Origin: an uncultured bacterium
GTDB lineage: Bacteria > Bacillota_I > Bacilli_A > RFN20 > CAG-826
Direction of reading: 5' to 3'
Length of the DNA stretch: 64,000 bases
Assembly: GCA_949288485.1 (NCBI GenBank)
Contig: CASEKC010000001.1
Span: 166,241 to 230,240, forward strand
Positions 12,690 to 62,023 of the stretch are shown in pieces (the first letter of the stretch is position 1; each line of letters opens with the position of its first letter). The notes beneath the pieces are model-generated. The model was not told the DNA's origin. It did no database searches and was given only the letters and a program-made list of their open reading frames with translations. A program made the position numbers and the translations under genes.

Positions 12690-13421
12690 TTATTTAGTAG
12701 AAATATAGTTATATAATAAAATTCCAGTAGCAATTCCAACATTTAAAGAATCAATATTTTCAATTGGTATTTTGATTGTTTTATCGACAATATCTAATAC
12801 TTCTTTACTAACACCATTTCCTTCATTTCCAACAATTAAAATTGCTTTTTTTGGCCATTTAAAATTTCTTAAATCAATAGTATCTTCTTTTAAAGAAGTT
12901 CCTATCAATTCATACTCATTTTTTAAACCAAGCAAAATGCTAGCACTTCCTTTTAATAGATTCAATGAGAAGATGGAGCCTTGGGAAGCTTGAATACATT
13001 TTTGATTATAAAAAGAAGAAATTGATGTAGAAATAACTGTTTTTATATTAAAAGCTAAGGCAGTTCTTAAAATTGTTCCGATATTTCCAGGATCTTGTAA
13101 AGAATCTAAATAAAGAATTAAATCTCCTTTTAAAGACTGATTTTCTTTTATTTTACAAACCGCTATTACTTTAGAAAAAGATTTATTAACACTTAATTTT
13201 TTCATTATTTTTTTATTAACAATATATTGAGTAATACTTTCATCTAAATCATCTATTTTTTCTAAAGTTAAAATAAAATCGAGTTCTTCTTTTTTAGCCA
13301 TTTCTAAAAGATGAAAACCTTCAATAATAAATCTTTTTTCTTCTTTAATATATTTAGGATTTTTAAGTTTATTTACATATTTGACAATTTTATTTTCTTC
13401 ACTTTCAATTTTTTTTATCAT
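12690..13421 (-). CDS. RlmB/TrmH-family (SpoU) rRNA 2'-O-ribose methyltransferase, housekeeping copy
   Basis: An N-terminal L30e-like domain is followed by SpoU motifs (DPGNIGTILRTALAF, VGNEGNGVS, IPIENIDSLNVGIA). Confidence 0.8.
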   Translation of the reverse strand: MIKKIESEENKIVKYVNKLKNPKYIKEEKRFIIEGFHLLEMAKKEELDFILTLEKIDDLDESITQYIVNKKIMKKLSVNKSFSKVIAVCKIKENQSLKGDLILYLDSLQDPGNIGTILRTALAFNIKTVISTSISSFYNQKCIQASQGSIFSLNLLKGSASILLGLKNEYELIGTSLKEDTIDLRNFKWPKKAILIVGNEGNGVSKEVLDIVDKTIKIPIENIDSLNVGIATGILLYNYISTK

Positions 13422-53550: not shown

Positions 53551-53582
53551 ATTTTTTCACTTCAGCATTTTTTCACTTCAGC
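53551..53582. repeat. tandem direct repeat of 2 x 16 bp (ATTTTTTCACTTCAGC)
   Basis: Two perfect contiguous copies lie 50-80 bp upstream of the FAD-oxidoreductase start and just downstream of the lipoprotein gene stop. Confidence 0.7.
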
Positions 53583-53637
53583 CTATTTATGAAACTAAAG
53601 AATTCTCAATAATATTGATACATTTTAAAAAAATATT

Positions 53638-54708
53638 TTATAAACTATAAGAAGTATTATATACAAAACTAGTAACAGGGTTATTTCCAATTACTGAACC
53701 ACTTGCTTCCATTATTTCAATAGTTGAAGTCATATCCACAATAAAAGGCGCTGCTTCTTCTTCGATTGGTTGTTCTATAAAATTAAATAATTTAAAACAA
53801 TTAAAAGGTTCAGAATTTTGGCTAACATATGGTTCATTATTACTATATGGATTTAAAAAAGTAACTTCGTTATATCCATAAGTAAGAAAATCGCTCCAAT
53901 ATTTAAACTCTACACAACCTGGATACATATAATGGCTACCTTCGATATAACAAGAATTATTATGAGTTAATCCACAATCTAAATAAAAATTAAATTGTTC
54001 TTCTGGATCTTCTCCATCATCATTCCCATAAGGAAGAACATCCCGTAAATTAAGGTTTTCTTTTGAAAAAAATACTTCGTTTTTAAAATGTTTATATCTT
54101 AACTTTTTATTATTTTGATTTAAAAAAATTTTATAAATATCTCCTAAAGCATAATCTTTAGTATCTTCGTATGTTTTTACAATATTTCCAAAACAATTAC
54201 TTATTATTCTCCCAAAATTATTATTATTTTTATCTAATGATATTAAGTTCCTTTTTGAAAAAACTTTTTCCCGGTTTCCAATAAAATTCATTGTAACAGG
54301 ACCATTTAATAAATAAGGATCATGCGGATTCGTAATTTCTTCAATTAATTCATCTAAAGAAGTTGCAGACATTTCATCACTTCCAAAAAAGGATCCGTTT
54401 TTAATCACACCATTTTCAATATATTTAAAGGTTCCTAGTTCTTCTAAATATATATAATTTTCATTATTTTTACTAAAACTATTCTCCTTTTTATCATTAA
54501 ATAGAAAACAATCATCATTAAAAAAAATTTCATATCCTTCTTTATCAAGCGAACCAAAAGTTTTTGATTCATATAAATTATATTTTTTTATTAATTCATC
54601 AAACGTGAATTCATTTGTTTCTAAATTTGGGGTTGAACTACAACCTGTTAGATATAAAGAAATGAGTAAAAATAAAAATTTATTTAATATTTTTCTTTTC
54701 ATAAACAA
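53638..54708 (-). CDS. lipoprotein, unknown function
   Basis: A signal peptide with lipobox LTGC (MFMKRKILNKFLFLLISLYLTGCSS) is present. Its start overlaps the upstream XRE gene by 29 nt. Confidence 0.6.
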   Translation of the reverse strand: MFMKRKILNKFLFLLISLYLTGCSSTPNLETNEFTFDELIKKYNLYESKTFGSLDKEGYEIFFNDDCFLFNDKKENSFSKNNENYIYLEELGTFKYIENGVIKNGSFFGSDEMSATSLDELIEEITNPHDPYLLNGPVTMNFIGNREKVFSKRNLISLDKNNNNFGRIISNCFGNIVKTYEDTKDYALGDIYKIFLNQNNKKLRYKHFKNEVFFSKENLNLRDVLPYGNDDGEDPEEQFNFYLDCGLTHNNSCYIEGSHYMYPGCVEFKYWSDFLTYGYNEVTFLNPYSNNEPYVSQNSEPFNCFKLFNFIEQPIEEEAAPFIVDMTSTIEIMEASGSVIGNNPVTSFVYNTSYSL

Positions 54709-55186
54709 CCGTCCTTATTAAAAGTCCTAAAAATACAAAAAAAGCTATAAAAAAAAGAATAAAGAAAACTTTAAAAATAATTAATTCTAGAGTTTTCCAG
54801 CTAATATACCACCATAAAACTTCTAAAGATTGATATTCTTTCACATAAATAGGATTATAAATTGAATATATTATTTCGAATATTAATACTGCAAAACTTA
54901 AAAGACATCCGCTCAAAAATGAATATGAAATTATTTTAATTCGAACTAACTCTTTATCCTTATTAAAATTAGATTTTAAGGCTTCCCCAATAAATTCTTC
55001 ATATGAAACATTAAACGTTGTTAATATTCTATTTAAAATATAAATATCGATTGTTCTACTACCTTTTTCATATCGGCATAAAGAGCTTCTTGATATGCCA
55101 AGTTTATCAGCCAAAGCTTCTTGAGAAAGATTATTTTTTATTCGTAATTCTGTGATTTTATGACCGATAATTTCATTTGTTAGCAT
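54680..55186 (-). CDS. XRE-family HTH regulator with C-terminal transmembrane segments
   Basis: An N-terminal Cro/C1-type HTH (LRIKNNLSQEALADKLGISRSSLCRYEKG) is followed by 2-3 TM helices. Confidence 0.65.
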   Translation of the reverse strand: MLTNEIIGHKITELRIKNNLSQEALADKLGISRSSLCRYEKGSRTIDIYILNRILTTFNVSYEEFIGEALKSNFNKDKELVRIKIISYSFLSGCLLSFAVLIFEIIYSIYNPIYVKEYQSLEVLWWYISWKTLELIIFKVFFILFFIAFFVFLGLLIRTVVYEKKNIK

Positions 55187-55352
55187 ATTTCTATTTTAAT
55201 GAAGAAATACATTTTTTCAATGATCTTTATCTAACTAATTTGAATTTCCATTTGGACACAAATAAAATCAAAAAAAGTGACAAATAGGTACATCACAAAA
55301 TTAAAAAATAATGATAATTTGAAAATGTAATATATTTCAAGGGGGACATAAT

Positions 55353-56132
55353 ATGTTTACAAAAATCGGCATTATTGCTTCCGCTGTTTTGAGCATTTCT
55401 ACTTTAAGTCAAAATGTTATCAACAAAAAATTAGAGGCAACTTCAAACGAGATTAATAAAGCCGAAAACGAAATTATTTCACAAAACTATTCTGGCTTTG
55501 ATACTGATGATTATGAAGATGAAATTAAAACAAACTTAATTAGTTATTATGAAAATCATACTTCATATGTTTCTCCAGTCGTTTTAAAACAACTAAAAAA
55601 TTATTTATATGATAATGATTATAGTTTTATCAAATATGATTCAATCTCGCCAAATTCTATAGGTAATCGTTTAGATTTAATGTTTGATAAATTTGACGGA
55701 GGCGGAGGCGGTTCTTCTTCACAAACTTTAAAGCCAATTTCAGGTTATACCACATCAAATATTTCGGCAAATTAAACTTCAAGTATTAATGGCAAGGTTT
55801 TTGTCGGATTTACTTTAACTAAAGAAAGTGCAGTTGCTTTTTATAATTCAGTCTATTCAATATTTAATACCGTAACCGATATCTATTCTAATATAAGCGA
55901 ATCATTACCATATTTTCTTGAGGTTGCTGTTACATCAATAGCATCTAAACTTAACTTGTTAATTGCAGCGTTACCTACCGCTTTAAAGGTCATCGTTGCT
56001 GTGGTTGCAGTTGGTTTAGCATTAATTGTTGCTATAATTGCATGGTTTGGATATCATGAAAAAGGATTCTATATTGGTTTATTAAGAAACGGCTTCTTAA
56101 ATTGGACTTTTGAATGTGGCACAATAGAATAA
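55353..56132 (+). pseudogene. secreted/membrane-anchored protein gene interrupted by one in-frame TAA (55773-55775)
   Basis: ORF 55353-55775 has an N-terminal signal-like segment and a GGGGGSSS linker. In the same reading frame it continues after the TAA for 118 more codons to a TAA at 56130. The continuation has no ATG and ends in a C-terminal TM anchor (ALKVIVAVVAVGLALIVAIIAWFGY). Confidence 0.45.
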
Positions 56133-56144
56133 AGGTGATTATTT

Positions 56145-57074
56145 ATGAAACTTAAAAATTATCATCTAAGAAATATTGTTTTTATAATTATATTATTAGA
56201 TTTATTTACATTATTTAATTCAATTGTTCCTTTTTATTATCTTGACGCGGCAAGATTATTAATTTATTTATTTCAATTTTTAATAATATTAACATTAGCA
56301 AGACATTTTTATTTCTATATTAAAATAAATAATAAGATGCATTTATTAAAAGATAATTATTTTAAATTATTTTTAATATTATCTATTATACTTTTTAGCT
56401 ATGTAATAATTATAAATACTATTCTTTCTTTTATCTTAAAAGGAGGATTTAATCTTTTAGCGGTTTTAATTAATTTATTACTTCTTTTAATACATAATAT
56501 CTTTTTCTTATATTTCTATAAGAATAAGATATATAATGTAAATACTGAAGAATTTAATTTTCTAATTTTAAGAAATTCCTTTAAAAATGATAATGATGAA
56601 TATAATTTAAATCATCTTAAAGAAATAAGATTAATTAGGTTAATCTCTTCTTTATTCCCATTTATATTTTCTTTTGTTATAACTTTTATTATTTTAGCAG
56701 TTGAAATAAATACTTCAATTTTAAGTTTAACTATTATTGGTTCAATTTCTTTTTTATTTCTTATTGGATTATTTATTTTTAATTTTATTTATAATGAAAA
56801 ACATCAAATATTTAAAAGATCTAAATTAATTATATCTTATATTGTTAAAGCTCTTCTTTTAGCTCTTTTAATCTTAATAACTTTTTACTATAAAGAAAAT
56901 TACTTATCTGAAGCACTTGTTTCAATAGAAAATAATAATGAATTTTATCTATTTACATCTTTATTTGCATTAGCTTTTGCTCTTGTTTATCAATTATTTA
57001 ATTATGTATTATCTTCAATGAATTATTATGATGAATCATATATAAGGTATTTAATTAGAAACAACAAAAAATAA
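56145..57074 (+). CDS. polytopic membrane protein, very AT-rich and Ile/Leu/Phe/Asn-rich
   Basis: 309 aa with 7 or more TM helices. It starts 12 bp after the interrupted gene and has no recognisable family motif. Confidence 0.45.
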   Translation: MKLKNYHLRNIVFIIILLDLFTLFNSIVPFYYLDAARLLIYLFQFLIILTLARHFYFYIKINNKMHLLKDNYFKLFLILSIILFSYVIIINTILSFILKGGFNLLAVLINLLLLLIHNIFFLYFYKNKIYNVNTEEFNFLILRNSFKNDNDEYNLNHLKEIRLIRLISSLFPFIFSFVITFIILAVEINTSILSLTIIGSISFLFLIGLFIFNFIYNEKHQIFKRSKLIISYIVKALLLALLILITFYYKENYLSEALVSIENNNEFYLFTSLFALAFALVYQLFNYVLSSMNYYDESYIRYLIRNNKK

Positions 57075-57305
57075 TCTTCTTTATAAATAAATAAAATTTT
57101 AATGAATATAAATTCGATGATTATTTATCTTTTTTTAACAAAGTTATATGACAAATATTTAAATAAGTAATAAATTAACTAGCTATATCTTTTATAAAAA
57201 AAGCATCAGCTTCTTTTAAAAATAAAAAAATAAGTTTACTTTATTTATTATTTCTTTTTTATCATCGATTTATTTATTAATTATTAATTTTTACTAATTT
57301 TAATT

Positions 57306-57554
57306 ATGGAAGTTAGTTACTTAACAATTAATAATTCTTTAGATTTTACTATTTTGAAAGATTTTAATTATTATTCTTTAATTTTCGTTATTTTAATTAT
57401 ATTTATTTATATTATTAAATGTTTATTAATAATAAACTTATTATTAGTTAAAAAGAACGAATTATTTAATAAAAAATTTTGGGTGATTTTTAAAGAAACT
57501 TTGACTAAGATGTGGTATATTAATTTAGTGATTTATGGAATTTTCAAAATATAA
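57306..57554 (+). CDS. possible small single-TM protein
   Basis: 82 aa with one TM helix. It overlaps the start of the SpoU gene by 20 nt and could be a spurious AT-rich ORF. Confidence 0.2.
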   Translation: MEVSYLTINNSLDFTILKDFNYYSLIFVILIIFIYIIKCLLIINLLLVKKNELFNKKFWVIFKETLTKMWYINLVIYGIFKI

Positions 57555-58275
57555 AAAAATATACGATTACTCATATACTTTAGGAGCCTTCCCAACAATA
57601 GAACTTATCAACAATAAACCCGAAAATGTTTTAAAAATTTTAATTCATTCTTCTTTTAAAAACGAAGAAGTATTAAACAATATTTTTATAAAATTACCTA
57701 AAGAAAAAGTTGAAATCACTTCTTCTAATAAAATTTTTAATATTTTAAGCGATAAAGAAAATGTTTTTATCATAGGTTTTTTTAAAAAATATCATACAAA
57801 TTTAGATAATAATGATGACCATATATTATTAGATAATCCTTCAAATATGGGAAATCTAGGAACAATGATACGTTCATCTCTTGGTTTTAACATTAAAAAT
57901 ATTGCAATTATTACACCAGGTGTTGATTATTTTGATCCAAAAGTTATCCGTTCATCAATGGGATCTATTTTTAGTGTAAATATAGAATATTTTAATTCAT
58001 TAAAAGAATATAAAGAAAAATATAAAAATCACATTATTTATTCTTTTATGTTACAAACTGATAAATATTTGGATAACTATAAATTTAATTTTAAAAAAGA
58101 CTTATATTCAACACTTGCTTTTGGAAACGAAGCAACAGGTTTAAATTATGATTTATATAAAAATGAAAATCCTATAAAAATTAACATTTCTTCAAAAATA
58201 GATTCTTTAAATATTACTAACGCATTAACAATCGCAACTTATGAGTTCGATAAACAAAAAAGGAATAATAAATAA
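57535..58275 (+). CDS. SpoU/TrmH-family RNA 2'-O-methyltransferase with N-terminal L30e-like domain (RlmB/Tsr-type architecture), accessory copy
   Basis: SpoU motifs 1-3 are present (NMGNLGTMIRSSLGF; LAFGNEATGLN; INISSKIDSLNITNALTIATYEF) with an N-terminal ~70-aa substrate-binding-like domain. Confidence 0.7.
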   Translation: MEFSKYKKIYDYSYTLGAFPTIELINNKPENVLKILIHSSFKNEEVLNNIFIKLPKEKVEITSSNKIFNILSDKENVFIIGFFKKYHTNLDNNDDHILLDNPSNMGNLGTMIRSSLGFNIKNIAIITPGVDYFDPKVIRSSMGSIFSVNIEYFNSLKEYKEKYKNHIIYSFMLQTDKYLDNYKFNFKKDLYSTLAFGNEATGLNYDLYKNENPIKINISSKIDSLNITNALTIATYEFDKQKRNNK

Positions 58276-58278
58276 ATT

Positions 58279-59082
58279 ATGAAGTTTGTTAACGAAAAAA
58301 AGGTTTATTCAATGTTTGAAGTTACAAAAGCTTCATCTTTTTCTAGAAATTTTCTTTTAGAATTAGAAGAAAATAATTTAATCGAGCCTTATTTTAAAGA
58401 CAAAAATACATCGTATCGATATTATGATGAAACAATTTTTATTAAATTAAATGAAATTAAAACTTTATTAAATGCTGGATTAAGTAAAAACGAAATAAAA
58501 GAATACTATATAAATAACGATTTAGATGATGAGTCATTATTAAAAAAAGAAAATAAAGAAAAAATTATCCGATCATTAAAAAATAAAAAAGATGATATTG
58601 ATACATCTTTGCTCTTTTTATCATCCTTAGTTAATAAAACTTATAAAAAGAAAATGGATGAAATTGTTTATTATTATGAAGAAAGAAACATTAATAATGT
58701 TAATCTTATTTCTCCATTATTAAAAGAAATCTATATACATGCTTTAGCAAAAAATTATTGTTTCTCTTCTTTTCCACCATTCGTTTTATTCCCTAAAACA
58801 TTATTAAACGATGAAAACAATGATATTTTTTCAAACGGAACTAACTATATAAAGGTAAAAATTTGTATACCTTTAATTAGAAAATATGATGAAAAAAATA
58901 TTGAATCTCTACAAAAAAATATCTCTTTAATTTATGAAATTAACAAAACTTCTTTTTTAAATGCGTTTAAAAATTTTCAAAATATTGTTAAAAATAATCC
59001 TTCAAACGATTTTTTATATCTTTTCTTTTTAAATAATGAAAAATTAAAAATTCATAAATTTATCATGCCTATAAATATCTAA
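58279..59082 (+). CDS. MerR-family HTH regulator with a ~190-aa C-terminal putative ligand-binding domain
   Basis: An N-terminal MerR HTH (YSMFEVTKASSFSRNFLLELEENNLIEPYFKDKNTSYRYYDETIFIKLNEIKTLLNAGLSKNEIKEY) is present. The start is 4 nt after the SpoU stop. Confidence 0.6.
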   Translation: MKFVNEKKVYSMFEVTKASSFSRNFLLELEENNLIEPYFKDKNTSYRYYDETIFIKLNEIKTLLNAGLSKNEIKEYYINNDLDDESLLKKENKEKIIRSLKNKKDDIDTSLLFLSSLVNKTYKKKMDEIVYYYEERNINNVNLISPLLKEIYIHALAKNYCFSSFPPFVLFPKTLLNDENNDIFSNGTNYIKVKICIPLIRKYDEKNIESLQKNISLIYEINKTSFLNAFKNFQNIVKNNPSNDFLYLFFLNNEKLKIHKFIMPINI

Positions 59083-59161
59083 ATAATAAATTTAATTTGA
59101 TTTTCTTTTTTTATTTCTTCTATGATTATTAAACTTAATTTTAATATCAGGAGGAAAAAAG

Positions 59162-60325
59162 ATGAACGATATCGCAAATATTTCATTATTAGAGAACTTG
59201 GTCTTAGATAAACTTATACCAGTTACTGATGAAGAAGGGAATATCCTTTTCTTTACTTTAAAAAGAAAAAAAGAAAATAGAGAGAATATTTCTTTTACCT
59301 CAAATTCTTTTACTAATCAAAGTCAAACAAATAACTTTAACATTTTTATATCTTCTAATAGTTTTACTCCAAATAAAATAGAAAAGAAAATTGATGAATC
59401 TATTAAAAATATTTCTTCATTTAAAATTCGCTATTTAAATTATAAACGCACAGATTATTCAGAAACTTATTTATATACTATTGATAATAAAATTGATATT
59501 TATATTATTCCTTCATTTAATAATTTAACTGAAAATTTATTTTCTTTAAATTTTGTTGAAAGATTTAGAAAACTTGTTCAGCTTAAAGATTATGAGACTA
59601 AATATAAAAATTCAGTTCTTTATATATTAAAAGATATGATTAATTATGCTCGAAAAATTAATATTATTAATAGTGAAGAAAGAGATAACTTAATTGAATT
59701 TGTTAAACCATTTAAAGAAGTAAAAATTAATTATTATAAGCCAATAAGAAATCGCTATACTTCATATAAAGATTTTTTAAAACTTATAACAAATATCGAT
59801 GATTATAACGATAAAGTTTTATTTCGTTTATTATATTTTTCAGGGTTAAGAATCGGAGAATTTTTAGGAGTTCAAATAAAAGATATTCGTTTTAAGAAAA
59901 ATATTGCATATGTTCATATTTATAAACAAAAATTATCAATGAATGGAACCATTACAAAAAGATTAAAAAACCTTTCTTCTTATAAAGTAATCATATATAC
60001 ACATGAAAATTGTGAAATTTTAAAAGAATATATTTCTAGAAACATTTTAAAAGGTGAAGATTTTTTATTTGATACATATCGAGTAAAAATACAACGAAAA
60101 CTTGATAGATATCTAAAAAAAGCAAAACTAAAACACAATTCATTACATGGTTTTGGAAGAAAATCAATCAATACAGAACTTTATAAAATTGGTGCTGATA
60201 GTAAAGTTAGAACTACTCTTCTTGGACAAACTTCTACTCAAATCAATGAACAAAATTATATTGATAAAGAGGTTGCTTTAAAAAAAGCGATTAGATTTTT
60301 AGATGATATTCCTAATCAAATATAA
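59162..60325 (+). CDS. int: tyrosine recombinase / phage-type integrase
   Basis: The C-terminal catalytic domain carries box I Arg (LLYFSGLRIGEFLGVQIKDIRF), an HxxR box (HSLHGFGRKS) and a C-terminal Tyr region (LLGQTSTQINEQNYID). The N-terminal SAM-like domain is AT-rich. Confidence 0.8.
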   Translation: MNDIANISLLENLVLDKLIPVTDEEGNILFFTLKRKKENRENISFTSNSFTNQSQTNNFNIFISSNSFTPNKIEKKIDESIKNISSFKIRYLNYKRTDYSETYLYTIDNKIDIYIIPSFNNLTENLFSLNFVERFRKLVQLKDYETKYKNSVLYILKDMINYARKINIINSEERDNLIEFVKPFKEVKINYYKPIRNRYTSYKDFLKLITNIDDYNDKVLFRLLYFSGLRIGEFLGVQIKDIRFKKNIAYVHIYKQKLSMNGTITKRLKNLSSYKVIIYTHENCEILKEYISRNILKGEDFLFDTYRVKIQRKLDRYLKKAKLKHNSLHGFGRKSINTELYKIGADSKVRTTLLGQTSTQINEQNYIDKEVALKKAIRFLDDIPNQI

Positions 60326-60371
60326 ATAAAATAAAAAAATTATATCAAATTTATGATATAATTTTTTATGT

Positions 60372-60445
60372 GCCTCATTAGTTCAGTGGCAGAACACCAG
60401 CTTCCCAAGCTGGCTACACGGGTTCGATTCCCGCATGGGGCTCCA
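60372..60445 (+). tRNA. tRNA-Gly (anticodon CCC)
   Basis: The cloverleaf was folded by hand: acceptor GCCTCAT/ATGGGGC with one G-U pair, D-arm GTTC/GAAC, anticodon stem CCAGC/GCTGG with loop TTCCCAA, T-loop TTCGATT, discriminator U and an encoded CCA. It closely resembles Firmicutes tRNA-Gly. Confidence 0.85.
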
Positions 60446-60463
60446 TTAATCGTGAAAAATATC

Positions 60464-60497
60464 TAAACACACCTTTATTAGGTGTTTAAGTTTTTTT
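60464..60497 (+). terminator. terminator after tRNA-Gly
   Basis: aaACACCtttattaGGTGTttaagttttttt. Confidence 0.45.
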
Positions 60498-60651
60498 AAA
60501 AAAAATTAGATAAAAGTTAACAATTATATCGAAAAGTAAACATCTTAAGTCTTTATTGAACTCAACAAAGATTAACCGATTTTTTTATCAAGTTCCAATG
60601 TTATATTTGAATTGATGTAACATATCAAAAATTATGTAGTCATTAAAAATT

Positions 60652-61251
60652 TTGTTACTAATAAAAATCAAATTAAAAAATATGGATATTAAAATTTTAA
60701 AAAATAAAAACATAGAAATATTAATAAATAGATCGTTAAATCACACAATTAAATATATTTTATTTGATGAAAATAAAGAAGATGCATTTGAAACATCAAT
60801 TTTAGGTTCTTTTAAAATTAACGAATTTAAAAATTGTAAACATTTATTTAATACATTAGCGATATCCAAAAATGAAGAAATATTTTTTTCGTACAATGAA
60901 TTTTTAAAAATTCTTACCTTATCTAACTATGATTTTTTATATCTTGAAAAAGATTTAAAAATATTTAATAAGATTAAAGAAAATATTAACAAAGAATTTA
61001 TAGATGAAGAAATATTTGTATTTTTTAAAAATTTAGTTAATAAAACATTTAAATACTTTTTAAAAAATAAACACCAAATAAATTTAATCAAAACTCAGCA
61101 AAATAAAGATTTTAATAATTTGATTAATTTTTATTACTTAAATGATGAAACAAAAATATTAAATGTAAATTTATTTAATGATTTAAATATAAAGGGACTA
61201 ACTTCTTCTTTATTAATTAATCAAATTATCACTTTTAATCCATTAGATTAA
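60652..61251 (+). CDS. hypothetical protein
   Basis: 199 aa with no motif recognised. It lies between tRNA-Gly and the pst operon. Confidence 0.35.
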   Translation: MLLIKIKLKNMDIKILKNKNIEILINRSLNHTIKYILFDENKEDAFETSILGSFKINEFKNCKHLFNTLAISKNEEIFFSYNEFLKILTLSNYDFLYLEKDLKIFNKIKENINKEFIDEEIFVFFKNLVNKTFKYFLKNKHQINLIKTQQNKDFNNLINFYYLNDETKILNVNLFNDLNIKGLTSSLLINQIITFNPLD

Positions 61252-61817
61252 GCAGAAAATGATTTTGTTCTATTTTTTAAATATGAATTATTAATTTTTA
61301 TTTCATAAAGTAGATTTATATTATCACTTTTTATCTTTTTCCAACTTGAAATAGTATTTAAAGCTAATAAACTTACTTCTATTTCATAACTTCTTAAACA
61401 CGCAATTACAAACGTTTCTTCATCTAAATTAATTTCTTTATATTCTTTATTTCCTAAAAATAACAAAAATAACATTCTAGTCGCTTTATCTTCTTTATCA
61501 TTACTTAATAATTTTAATATTCCGCCATAAAAGAAACTTTTTTCAATTCTTTCTAATAAATCATATGGCAAAATTGTTTTTTCTAATGTAGGAAGCTTGT
61601 TATTTAAATATGAATGAACATTCCTTTTTAAAATTTCATATAAAGTTAATAATGAATTTTCACTTTTTTCATATCTAGCACCGTTATTAAAATCAATAAA
61701 TTCTTTATAGATATCCTTAAATTTTTTATATTGTTCTTCGTCTTTTTTAATGTTTAATTCTAAAGATGAAAATGATGGAAAATTATACGATGGTGCATAT
61801 ATTTTTAAACTATTCAA
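61248..61817 (-). CDS. hypothetical protein
   Basis: 189 aa with no motif recognised. It converges on the previous ORF with a 4-nt stop overlap. Confidence 0.35.
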   Translation of the reverse strand: MNSLKIYAPSYNFPSFSSLELNIKKDEEQYKKFKDIYKEFIDFNNGARYEKSENSLLTLYEILKRNVHSYLNNKLPTLEKTILPYDLLERIEKSFFYGGILKLLSNDKEDKATRMLFLLFLGNKEYKEINLDEETFVIACLRSYEIEVSLLALNTISSWKKIKSDNINLLYEIKINNSYLKNRTKSFSA

Positions 61818-61995
61818 TTTTTTGACCTCCTTTCAAACTTTTATAATAAAAATTAGTCCCTTATATATACAAGAAGGCTAAAAAATTAAATTTTATGTCG
61901 AAAAAATTAGATTTTTTTAATAATTTCAGAAATATTAAATAAATAGTAAATAATTAGTATTTTTTTAATAAATCCTCAATTTAAATCTATGAATC

Positions 61996-62023
61996 TTTAC
62001 AATTCCTTAACAATTCTTTACAT
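61996..62023 (+). promoter_or_regulatory. putative Pho box (three TT[AT]ACA direct repeats at 11-bp spacing) upstream of pstS
   Basis: TTTACAattccTTAACAattctTTACAT, ending about 80 bp before the pstS start. It matches the Firmicutes PhoP TT(A/T/C)ACA-N5 repeat architecture. Confidence 0.4.

Follow-up and report, generated by a model that had tools for sequence, protein, structure and literature searches.

Among the described systems closest to the locus reported here, the bmr-bmrR operon places the gene for the target before that of its regulator, and TipA is autoregulated without being the regulator of tsr. MerR regulators with GyrI-like domains (BmrR, EcmrR, BrlR and AlbA-type proteins) are ligand-activated, with genes that usually lie beside their targets (PMC8113463, PMC9909328); GyrI-like proteins can confer resistance by ligand binding alone (PMC9545259, PMC10414762), and the TipA and AlbA systems are autoregulated (PMC7762955, PMC10189885, PMC8113463). 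Here we describe a SpoU-type RNA methyltransferase gene (57535-58275, + strand, 246 aa) followed by a MerR-family regulator gene (58279-59082, + strand, 267 aa) in a stretch of 64,000 nucleotides (the window) of contig CASEKC010000001.1 from an uncultured bacterium (GTDB lineage RFN20; CAG-826). The pair had been proposed, in what we call the original prediction, to form a drug-sensing ribosome-methylation resistance cassette on a mobile island, modelled on Tsr and TipA. As judged from comparison of sequences and gene order, it is a chromosomal operon, vertically inherited within a small group of uncultured, low-GC, gut-type Bacilli, and we consider it somewhat probable that its BmrR-class regulator tunes its own operon, hence the level of the methyltransferase, by ligand.

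Both open reading frames (ORFs) were confirmed by ORF calls and by Pfam (SpoU_methylase and MerR_1, respectively), so that the gene coordinates and spacing of the original prediction stand: the stop codon of the methyltransferase gene ends at 58275 and the regulator ATG lies 4 nt later, at 58279. ORFs of the 64-kb window, which has 25.7% GC overall, read cleanly with translation table 11. A search for terminator-like hairpins in 57000-60700 returned a single one, at 60469-60485 (+ strand), resembling an intrinsic terminator and located 3' of a tRNA-Gly(CCC) gene; none was found between the methyltransferase and regulator genes. Compared with two sister species, both genes are under purifying selection (ratio of nonsynonymous to synonymous substitution rates, dN/dS, 0.07-0.15, with ~0.10 for the methyltransferase gene).

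Gene contexts of regulator homologues were read in L007, L017, L018, L019, L021-L028 and L109, where labels L001-L109 denote loci of relatives, L021-L028 those of eight GTDB reference species, and L017, L018, L019 and L109 those of metagenomic relatives. At every locus with readable upstream DNA, the regulator gene is immediately preceded by the co-oriented methyltransferase gene. The pair is intact in seven of the eight GTDB species (L021-L027) as well as in L017, L018, L019 and L109; the L028 record is cut and retains only 40 3'-terminal codons of the methyltransferase gene upstream of the regulator. The two genes overlap or are separated by ~5 nt or less in the loci read, and a regulator gene lacking its methyltransferase partner was not encountered among them. 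The tight operonic coupling noted earlier for the window is thus conserved across the relatives' loci. A divergent cluster encoding a flavin adenine dinucleotide (FAD)-dependent protein, a CdaA-type diadenylate cyclase, and PNP_UDP and NERD proteins adjoins the pair in all loci except the truncated L024 and L028. Among relatives with the pair, identity drops to 38% for the regulator and to 62% for the methyltransferase. Even between genera the two genes remain joined as a tight bicistronic unit, although the DNA downstream was rearranged.

The methyltransferase belongs to a family that mostly occurs without the regulator. In three unrelated genomes its gene is solitary amid ordinary chromosomal genes. 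Family members (40-63% identity) were further collected from 80 metagenomic loci, 64 of which had at least 800 bp of downstream sequence and were scored; a downstream match to the regulator profile was found in none of these 64 standalone loci. In a neighbor-joining tree, the eight methyltransferases that are paired with a regulator group into a single clade inside the standalone ones, with ordinary branch lengths. The window enzyme shares 62-63% identity with those of distant pair-bearing genera, the same as with standalone homologs (63-64%). Because the pair clade is nested in the standalone family with equal identities, the most direct reading of the sequences is vertical inheritance of the methyltransferase and a single gain of the regulator. 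On this phylogenetic evidence, the methyltransferase descends vertically within a conserved family whose other genes stand alone on the chromosome, and the proposal of an acquired extra SpoU paralog does not hold.

Pfam SpoU_methylase matches residues 96-236 of the methyltransferase with 89.2 bits (profile positions 3-142 of 142), and nothing in Pfam was matched to its N-terminal domain. An AlphaFold2 (AF2) model, built from 21 family members, reached a predicted local distance difference test score (pLDDT) of 94.2 and aligns full-length (~240-250 columns; template modelling score, TM, 0.72-0.80) with AviRb, YsgA/RlmP, RlmR, SmMTase, NHR, RlmB and Tsr. Identities in these fold alignments are 15-22%, with 18-20% for AviRb, the best fold match. 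The model thereby bears out the architecture originally proposed, an N-terminal domain plus a SpoU domain, and identifies the protein as a two-domain RNA 2'-O-ribose methyltransferase with an L30e-like N-terminal domain and a SPOUT/SpoU catalytic domain, a layout shared with RlmP/YsgA, RlmR, RlmB, AviRb, NHR and Tsr. SpoU motifs N-x-G-N-x-G-T, G-N-E and S-L-N are invariant across the family, the invariant alignment columns being G106, N107, G109, T110 and R113; G197, N198 and E199; and S224, L225 and N226.

Assignment of a substrate by homology was attempted and abandoned, since NCBIfam, PDB sequence, PDB profile and fold searches leave the methyltransferase equidistant from resistance and housekeeping enzymes. 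It passed no NCBIfam equivalog (score/cut-off: RlmB 55.8/160, TrmL 46.9/190.6, TrmJ 25.3/167, TrmH 16/227), and the thiopeptide-resistance models NF000477 and NF000035 gave 35.5 against a cut-off of 425 (NshR/TsnR) and 26.5 against 500. In a single-sequence PDB search AviRb was the top match, over the catalytic domain only and with 46.6 bits; the family profile scored SmMTase highest (74 bits), followed by TrmL (55), RlmP (53), AviRb (53), RlmR (51), NHR (45), Tsr (41) and RlmB (20). These scores place the methyltransferase at least as near to the housekeeping enzymes RlmP and RlmR as to Tsr, NHR or AviRb. It differs from the NshR/TsnR group (Tsr, NHR), of which it is not a member given scores far below the equivalog cut-offs, and also from producer self-resistance enzymes of the AviRb/NHR/Tsr type in lying outside any biosynthetic cluster or mobile element. 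From architecture alone, 23S rRNA is the most likely substrate.

A word-indexed search returned thousands of methyltransferase matches; the best 120 are all 235-266 aa long, share at least 53% identity (E<1e-70) and come mostly from metagenome-assembled genomes of Bacilli. An exhaustive HMMER scan gave ~165 clusters at 50% identity (E<=1e-30), and among the 150 listed most are near-full-length. Look-ups of distant family members yielded only "TrmH family RNA methyltransferase" from uncultured genomes, with no characterized or named member. Sequence relationships place the methyltransferase in its own old, conserved and uncharacterized TrmH-family subfamily. In at least four separate lineages a solitary tRNA gene lies within 400 bp of a family member, with C34 in three of the four anticodons: tRNA-Arg UCG (L010, L012, L029, L031, L034, L037, L039 and L040), tRNA-Lys CUU (L066, L073 and L101), tRNA-Glu CUC (L098) and tRNA-Gly CCC (window). 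This adjacency could reflect chance, a shared insertion-hotspot effect, or a lead to a tRNA substrate.

Turning to the regulator, Pfam recognizes MerR_1 alone, by a weak match over residues 10-76 (23.3 bits, cut-off 21.6), and gave no GyrI-like sequence match for the C-terminal domain. A profile built from 11 regulator sequences matches BmrR with an E value of 2e-10 over residues 7-125, which include the helix-turn-helix (HTH), the wing motif TSYRYY and the start of the coiled coil; the MerR assignment is strengthened by this match. The AF2 model (pLDDT 85.9) comprises a winged HTH (~7-76), a long helix (87-114) and a C-terminal domain (~119-265), the latter composed of a beta-beta-alpha-beta half and a similar, less regular second half. 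Foldseek searches with the whole model retrieved EcmrR (E 2e-10), BmrR (E 2e-9), BrlR and the albicidin resistance protein STM3175. With the C-terminal domain as query, matches were obtained to the C-terminal domains of EcmrR (6wl5, target-normalized TM score, TMt, 0.68) and BmrR (2bow/1bow, 0.64-0.66), to CtaZ (0.66), and to SAV2435, CTR107 and SbmC/GyrI, with a Foldseek probability of 1.00 for the EcmrR and BmrR domains, CtaZ and SbmC/GyrI. The monomer model, including the coiled-coil helix 87-114, aligns full-length to EcmrR and BmrR chains. The C-terminal domain, left unassigned by the original prediction and marked there for a Pfam and fold check, is hence a predicted ligand-binding domain of the GyrI-like (SHS2-duplication) effector-binding type, and the modelled regulator is a BmrR/EcmrR-class MerR protein consisting of winged HTH, coiled coil and GyrI-like domain. 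Invariant residues include Y131-Y132-Y133-E134, Y152, Y160, Y203 and E205, and such aromatic and acidic side chains would suit a BmrR-type pocket. Regulator homologs are rare: only 10 were found in a collection of 5.8 billion sequences, and only eight species among 185,579 GTDB representatives carry one.

The regulator thus shares its three-part architecture with BmrR of B. subtilis and EcmrR of E. coli, to which its N-terminal 120 residues are recognizably homologous, and the methyltransferase-regulator order resembles that of target and regulator in bmr-bmrR. It differs from both proteins in three respects: its operon partner is an RNA methyltransferase and not an efflux pump, its C-terminal domain has no sequence-level GyrI-like match, and no promoter with a dyad-containing spacer of 19-20 nt was found upstream of its operon. 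TipAL likewise joins a MerR-family N-terminal domain to a C-terminal domain that binds a ligand, in its case an antibiotic; the C-terminal fold predicted for the window regulator is however GyrI-like and not TipAS-like.

The placement of the pair on a mobile island had been drawn from a tyrosine recombinase gene of the phage integrase type downstream (59162-60325, + strand, 387 aa; ORF and Pfam), the product of which scores 55 bits with Pfam Phage_integrase and 89.6 bits with phrog_1. This gene is present in four of the eight reference species, a sub-clade formed by L021, L022, L023/L007 and L024 plus the window, and the pair occupies the same chromosomal site without an integrase in L017, L018, L019, L025, L026 and L109. 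In the window, the integrase gene is followed by tRNA-Gly(CCC) (60372-60445, + strand; ARAGORN and Rfam); in the integrase-free loci L018, L019, L025 and L026, this tRNA starts 12-40 nt past the regulator end. Since the tRNA directly follows the regulator where the integrase is absent, the ancestral order would have been methyltransferase, regulator, tRNA-Gly, with the integrase inserted later. From this comparison of gene orders, the integrase entered between regulator and tRNA-Gly at a later date in a single sub-clade and does not carry the pair as cargo. Integrase identity ranges from 54 to 80% across the sub-clade, in rough step with the divergence of its neighbors, and a dN/dS of 0.096 indicates purifying selection.

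Further searches for signs of mobility were negative. For attachment (att) sites, tRNA-Gly-derived repeats were sought in the window and only the tRNA itself matches; direct repeats within 53-62 kb are limited to low-complexity AT-rich matches. Plasmid collections contain no match to the regulator and, for the methyltransferase, only distant SpoU domains (catalytic half, 34% identity or less), a viral contig collection no relative of either gene beyond generic SpoU domains, and defence-system and phage profile libraries no match for either protein. Third codon positions have a GC content (GC3) of 0.126 in the methyltransferase gene and 0.138 in the regulator gene, compared with 0.09-0.15 in the core genes for PheS, CdaA, the FAD protein and PstS. 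As GC3 is uniform across window genes, the low GC of 56000-62000 is not evidence of foreign origin. The dip to 18-22% GC in this interval stems from codon positions 1 and 2, in genes for poorly constrained proteins rich in Lys, Asn and Ile. Synteny in integrase-free relatives, the lack of att repeats, core-like GC3 and the absence of plasmid or viral relatives together speak against an island or other mobile element as the carrier of the pair.

With respect to the integrase and the tRNA themselves, the recombinase gene lies on the 5' side of tRNA-Gly(CCC) and not on its 3' side. Directly 3' of the tRNA, the window and L021/L022 have different DNA, with ~2.1 kb extra in L022, and the integrase may be a resident one serving a tRNA-Gly insertion hotspot. 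A -10 box of tRNA-Gly(CCC), TGATATAAT, is located at 60353-60361. Co-transcription of the tRNA with the operon was considered and rejected, as most loci show a separate -10 box before the tRNA.

Upstream of the operon, an extended -10 element (TG, 57513-57514; TATATT, 57516-57521) is located 13 nt ahead of the methyltransferase ATG. The window, L021 and L022 have TGnTATATT in common, and L023 shows it as well. In the window, L021 and L022, a TTTAAAG block precedes the -10 box by 20-21 nt; it is missing from other genera, and at 20% GC it is weak evidence. In five or six other genera (L018, L019, L025, L026, L027 and L109), the -10 box is located just 6-7 nt before the methyltransferase ATG, and this spacing in the sequences suggests that their methyltransferase mRNAs are leaderless. 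In the window, a 3,929-bp strain-specific insertion (53558-57486, not assigned to a strand), missing from L021 and L022, is embedded in a T-run that separates the methyltransferase promoter from the divergent FAD-protein/CdaA operon; from 57487 onward the window again aligns with L021/L022, so that a native region of 48 nt (57487-57534, + strand) is left upstream of the operon. Because the insertion ends 48 nt before the ATG, any operator must lie within 57487-57534. A generic promoter scan of the sequence gave fewer matches than were obtained in shuffled sequence.

We consider it somewhat probable that the BmrR-class regulator tunes the vertically inherited operon by which it is itself encoded, and with it the amount of methyltransferase, in response to a ligand. 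In such a scheme, the clade ancestor would have gained the regulator gene once, in the interval that separates the methyltransferase gene from tRNA-Gly(CCC). On the model of bmr-bmrR, and of TipA and AlbA, which are autoregulated, a regulator dimer would bind the operon promoter; a hydrophobic or aromatic small molecule might fill its GyrI-like pocket, and the ligand-bound form would alter operon transcription and so change the methyltransferase level. Several observations weigh against this. No MerR-type promoter (-35 and -10 boxes at 19-20 nt spacing, with a dyad in the spacer) was found consistently upstream of the operon across 10 species, in a scan with low power at ~20% GC. In the window strain, the insertion has replaced all DNA more than 48 nt upstream of the methyltransferase ATG. 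Moreover, co-transcription alone is no proof that the regulator controls the operon promoter. The failure to find an operator would also fit a pair that is co-transcribed and functionally unrelated, the regulator controlling genes elsewhere, such as those of an efflux pump, or sequestering a drug in the manner of TipA, AlbA and CtaZ. The regulator indeed evolves much faster than its neighbor (38-50% versus 62-71% identity), and CtaZ, STM3175 and SAV2435 are among its fold matches, in a class of GyrI-like proteins that can resist by binding alone. However, adjacency is invariant in all lineages examined (~5 nt or less, or overlap) despite downstream rearrangement, and the regulator was never found without the methyltransferase gene. 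We regard a merely positional association as a minor possibility.

Two further explanations assign the methyltransferase a role in antibiotic resistance. The enzyme could be an intrinsic chromosomal means of ribosome protection, modifying a drug site in 23S rRNA and placed under a xenobiotic sensor in this clade. Conserved operon coupling and the BmrR-class sensor fold would agree with such a role, as would the fact that all characterized two-domain fold matches of the methyltransferase act on 23S rRNA, several of them at antibiotic-binding sites (PMC9380741). We nonetheless judge it unlikely, given that the family is mostly standalone and unregulated, which fits a constitutive housekeeping modification, and that a MerR-type promoter was not found upstream of the operon. 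Far less credible still is the Tsr/TipA-like arrangement of the original prediction, in which a mobile, integrase-linked sensor would detect a ribosome-targeting antibiotic and induce a protective 23S rRNA 2'-O-methyltransferase. It is suggested by the adjacent integrase and tRNA genes, by the drug-sensor-type GyrI-like fold of the regulator, and by the avilamycin-resistance enzyme AviRb as best single-sequence PDB and fold match of the methyltransferase. Against it stand the integrase-free relatives in which the pair is syntenic and the position of the integrase between regulator and ancestral tRNA, together with the lack of att repeats and of plasmid or viral homologs and the core-like GC3. 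The methyltransferase, in turn, has standalone chromosomal orthologs in many other Bacilli, lies far below the NshR/TsnR cut-off, and has AviRb, NHR and Tsr profile scores no better than those for RlmP, RlmR and TrmL. A resistance cassette of this type is therefore highly improbable, and by sequence comparison a tie between the methyltransferase and antibiotic resistance is not supported. Of the two results that the original prediction had named as speaking against it, clustering of the methyltransferase with a conserved family in relatives was found, and a regulator C-terminal domain devoid of a ligand-binding fold was not, its predicted fold being of the ligand-binding type.

Other features of the window concern the variable DNA and a second SpoU gene. 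Other assemblies of the same species differ at 53558-57486, and this insertion, along with the sequence 3' of the tRNA, is the truly variable DNA at the locus. The insertion carries genes for a lipoprotein, an XRE-HTH membrane protein and a 309-aa membrane protein, a 259-codon gene and a small ORF; none of its genes was recognized as encoding a recombinase, and a tandem CACTTCAGC repeat is located at its left end. The 259-codon gene (55353-56132) is broken by an in-frame TAA at 55773-55775, where a 99.5%-identical contig (L001) has TAT (Tyr), reflecting either a nonsense mutation in the window strain or a sequencing difference. An 82-codon ORF at 57306-57554 (+ strand, 15% GC), called as a gene in some assemblies, overlaps the methyltransferase start by 20 nt; it lies mostly within the insertion, does not occur in L021, L022 or L023, and is probably not a conserved gene.

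The second SpoU gene, at 12690-13421 on the - strand, had been described as a housekeeping RlmB/TrmH-like gene. Its presence was confirmed, and the RlmB label did not hold. The gene lies upstream of a major facilitator superfamily (MFS) gene and pheS, with pheS 1.5 kb downstream, surroundings that resemble the ysgA-pheS neighborhood of B. subtilis. The TIGR00186 RlmB model scores 107.8 against a cut-off of 160, and the best PDB match, at 95.3 bits and full length, is 7QIU, the B. subtilis YsgA/RlmP enzyme responsible for Gm2553 of 23S rRNA (PMC9380741). Judged by these matches, the product is RlmP/YsgA-like rather than RlmB.

The main value of these results is corrective, in that the locus does not constitute a mobile resistance cassette and ought not to carry that annotation. 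Its novel part is best described as a BmrR-class regulator paired in an operon with an uncharacterized SpoU RNA methyltransferase, both kinds of component being already known; our literature search found no paper linking a MerR/GyrI-like regulator with an rRNA methyltransferase. The locus also draws attention to a well-conserved, uncharacterized SpoU subfamily. If the regulator does control the methyltransferase, a xenobiotic-sensing MerR/GyrI-like factor would be wired to an RNA 2'-O-methyltransferase. Going one step further, a BmrR-class small-molecule sensor may have been recruited to an RNA-modification enzyme, such that, in these gut Bacilli with reduced genomes, an environmental ligand would switch the ribose methylation of ribosomes or, more speculatively, methylation of the solitary C34/U34 tRNAs near members of the methyltransferase family. 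We advance this idea as a rather doubtful one; either version, if true, would represent a ligand-gated epitranscriptomic or intrinsic-resistance response of a kind not described before.

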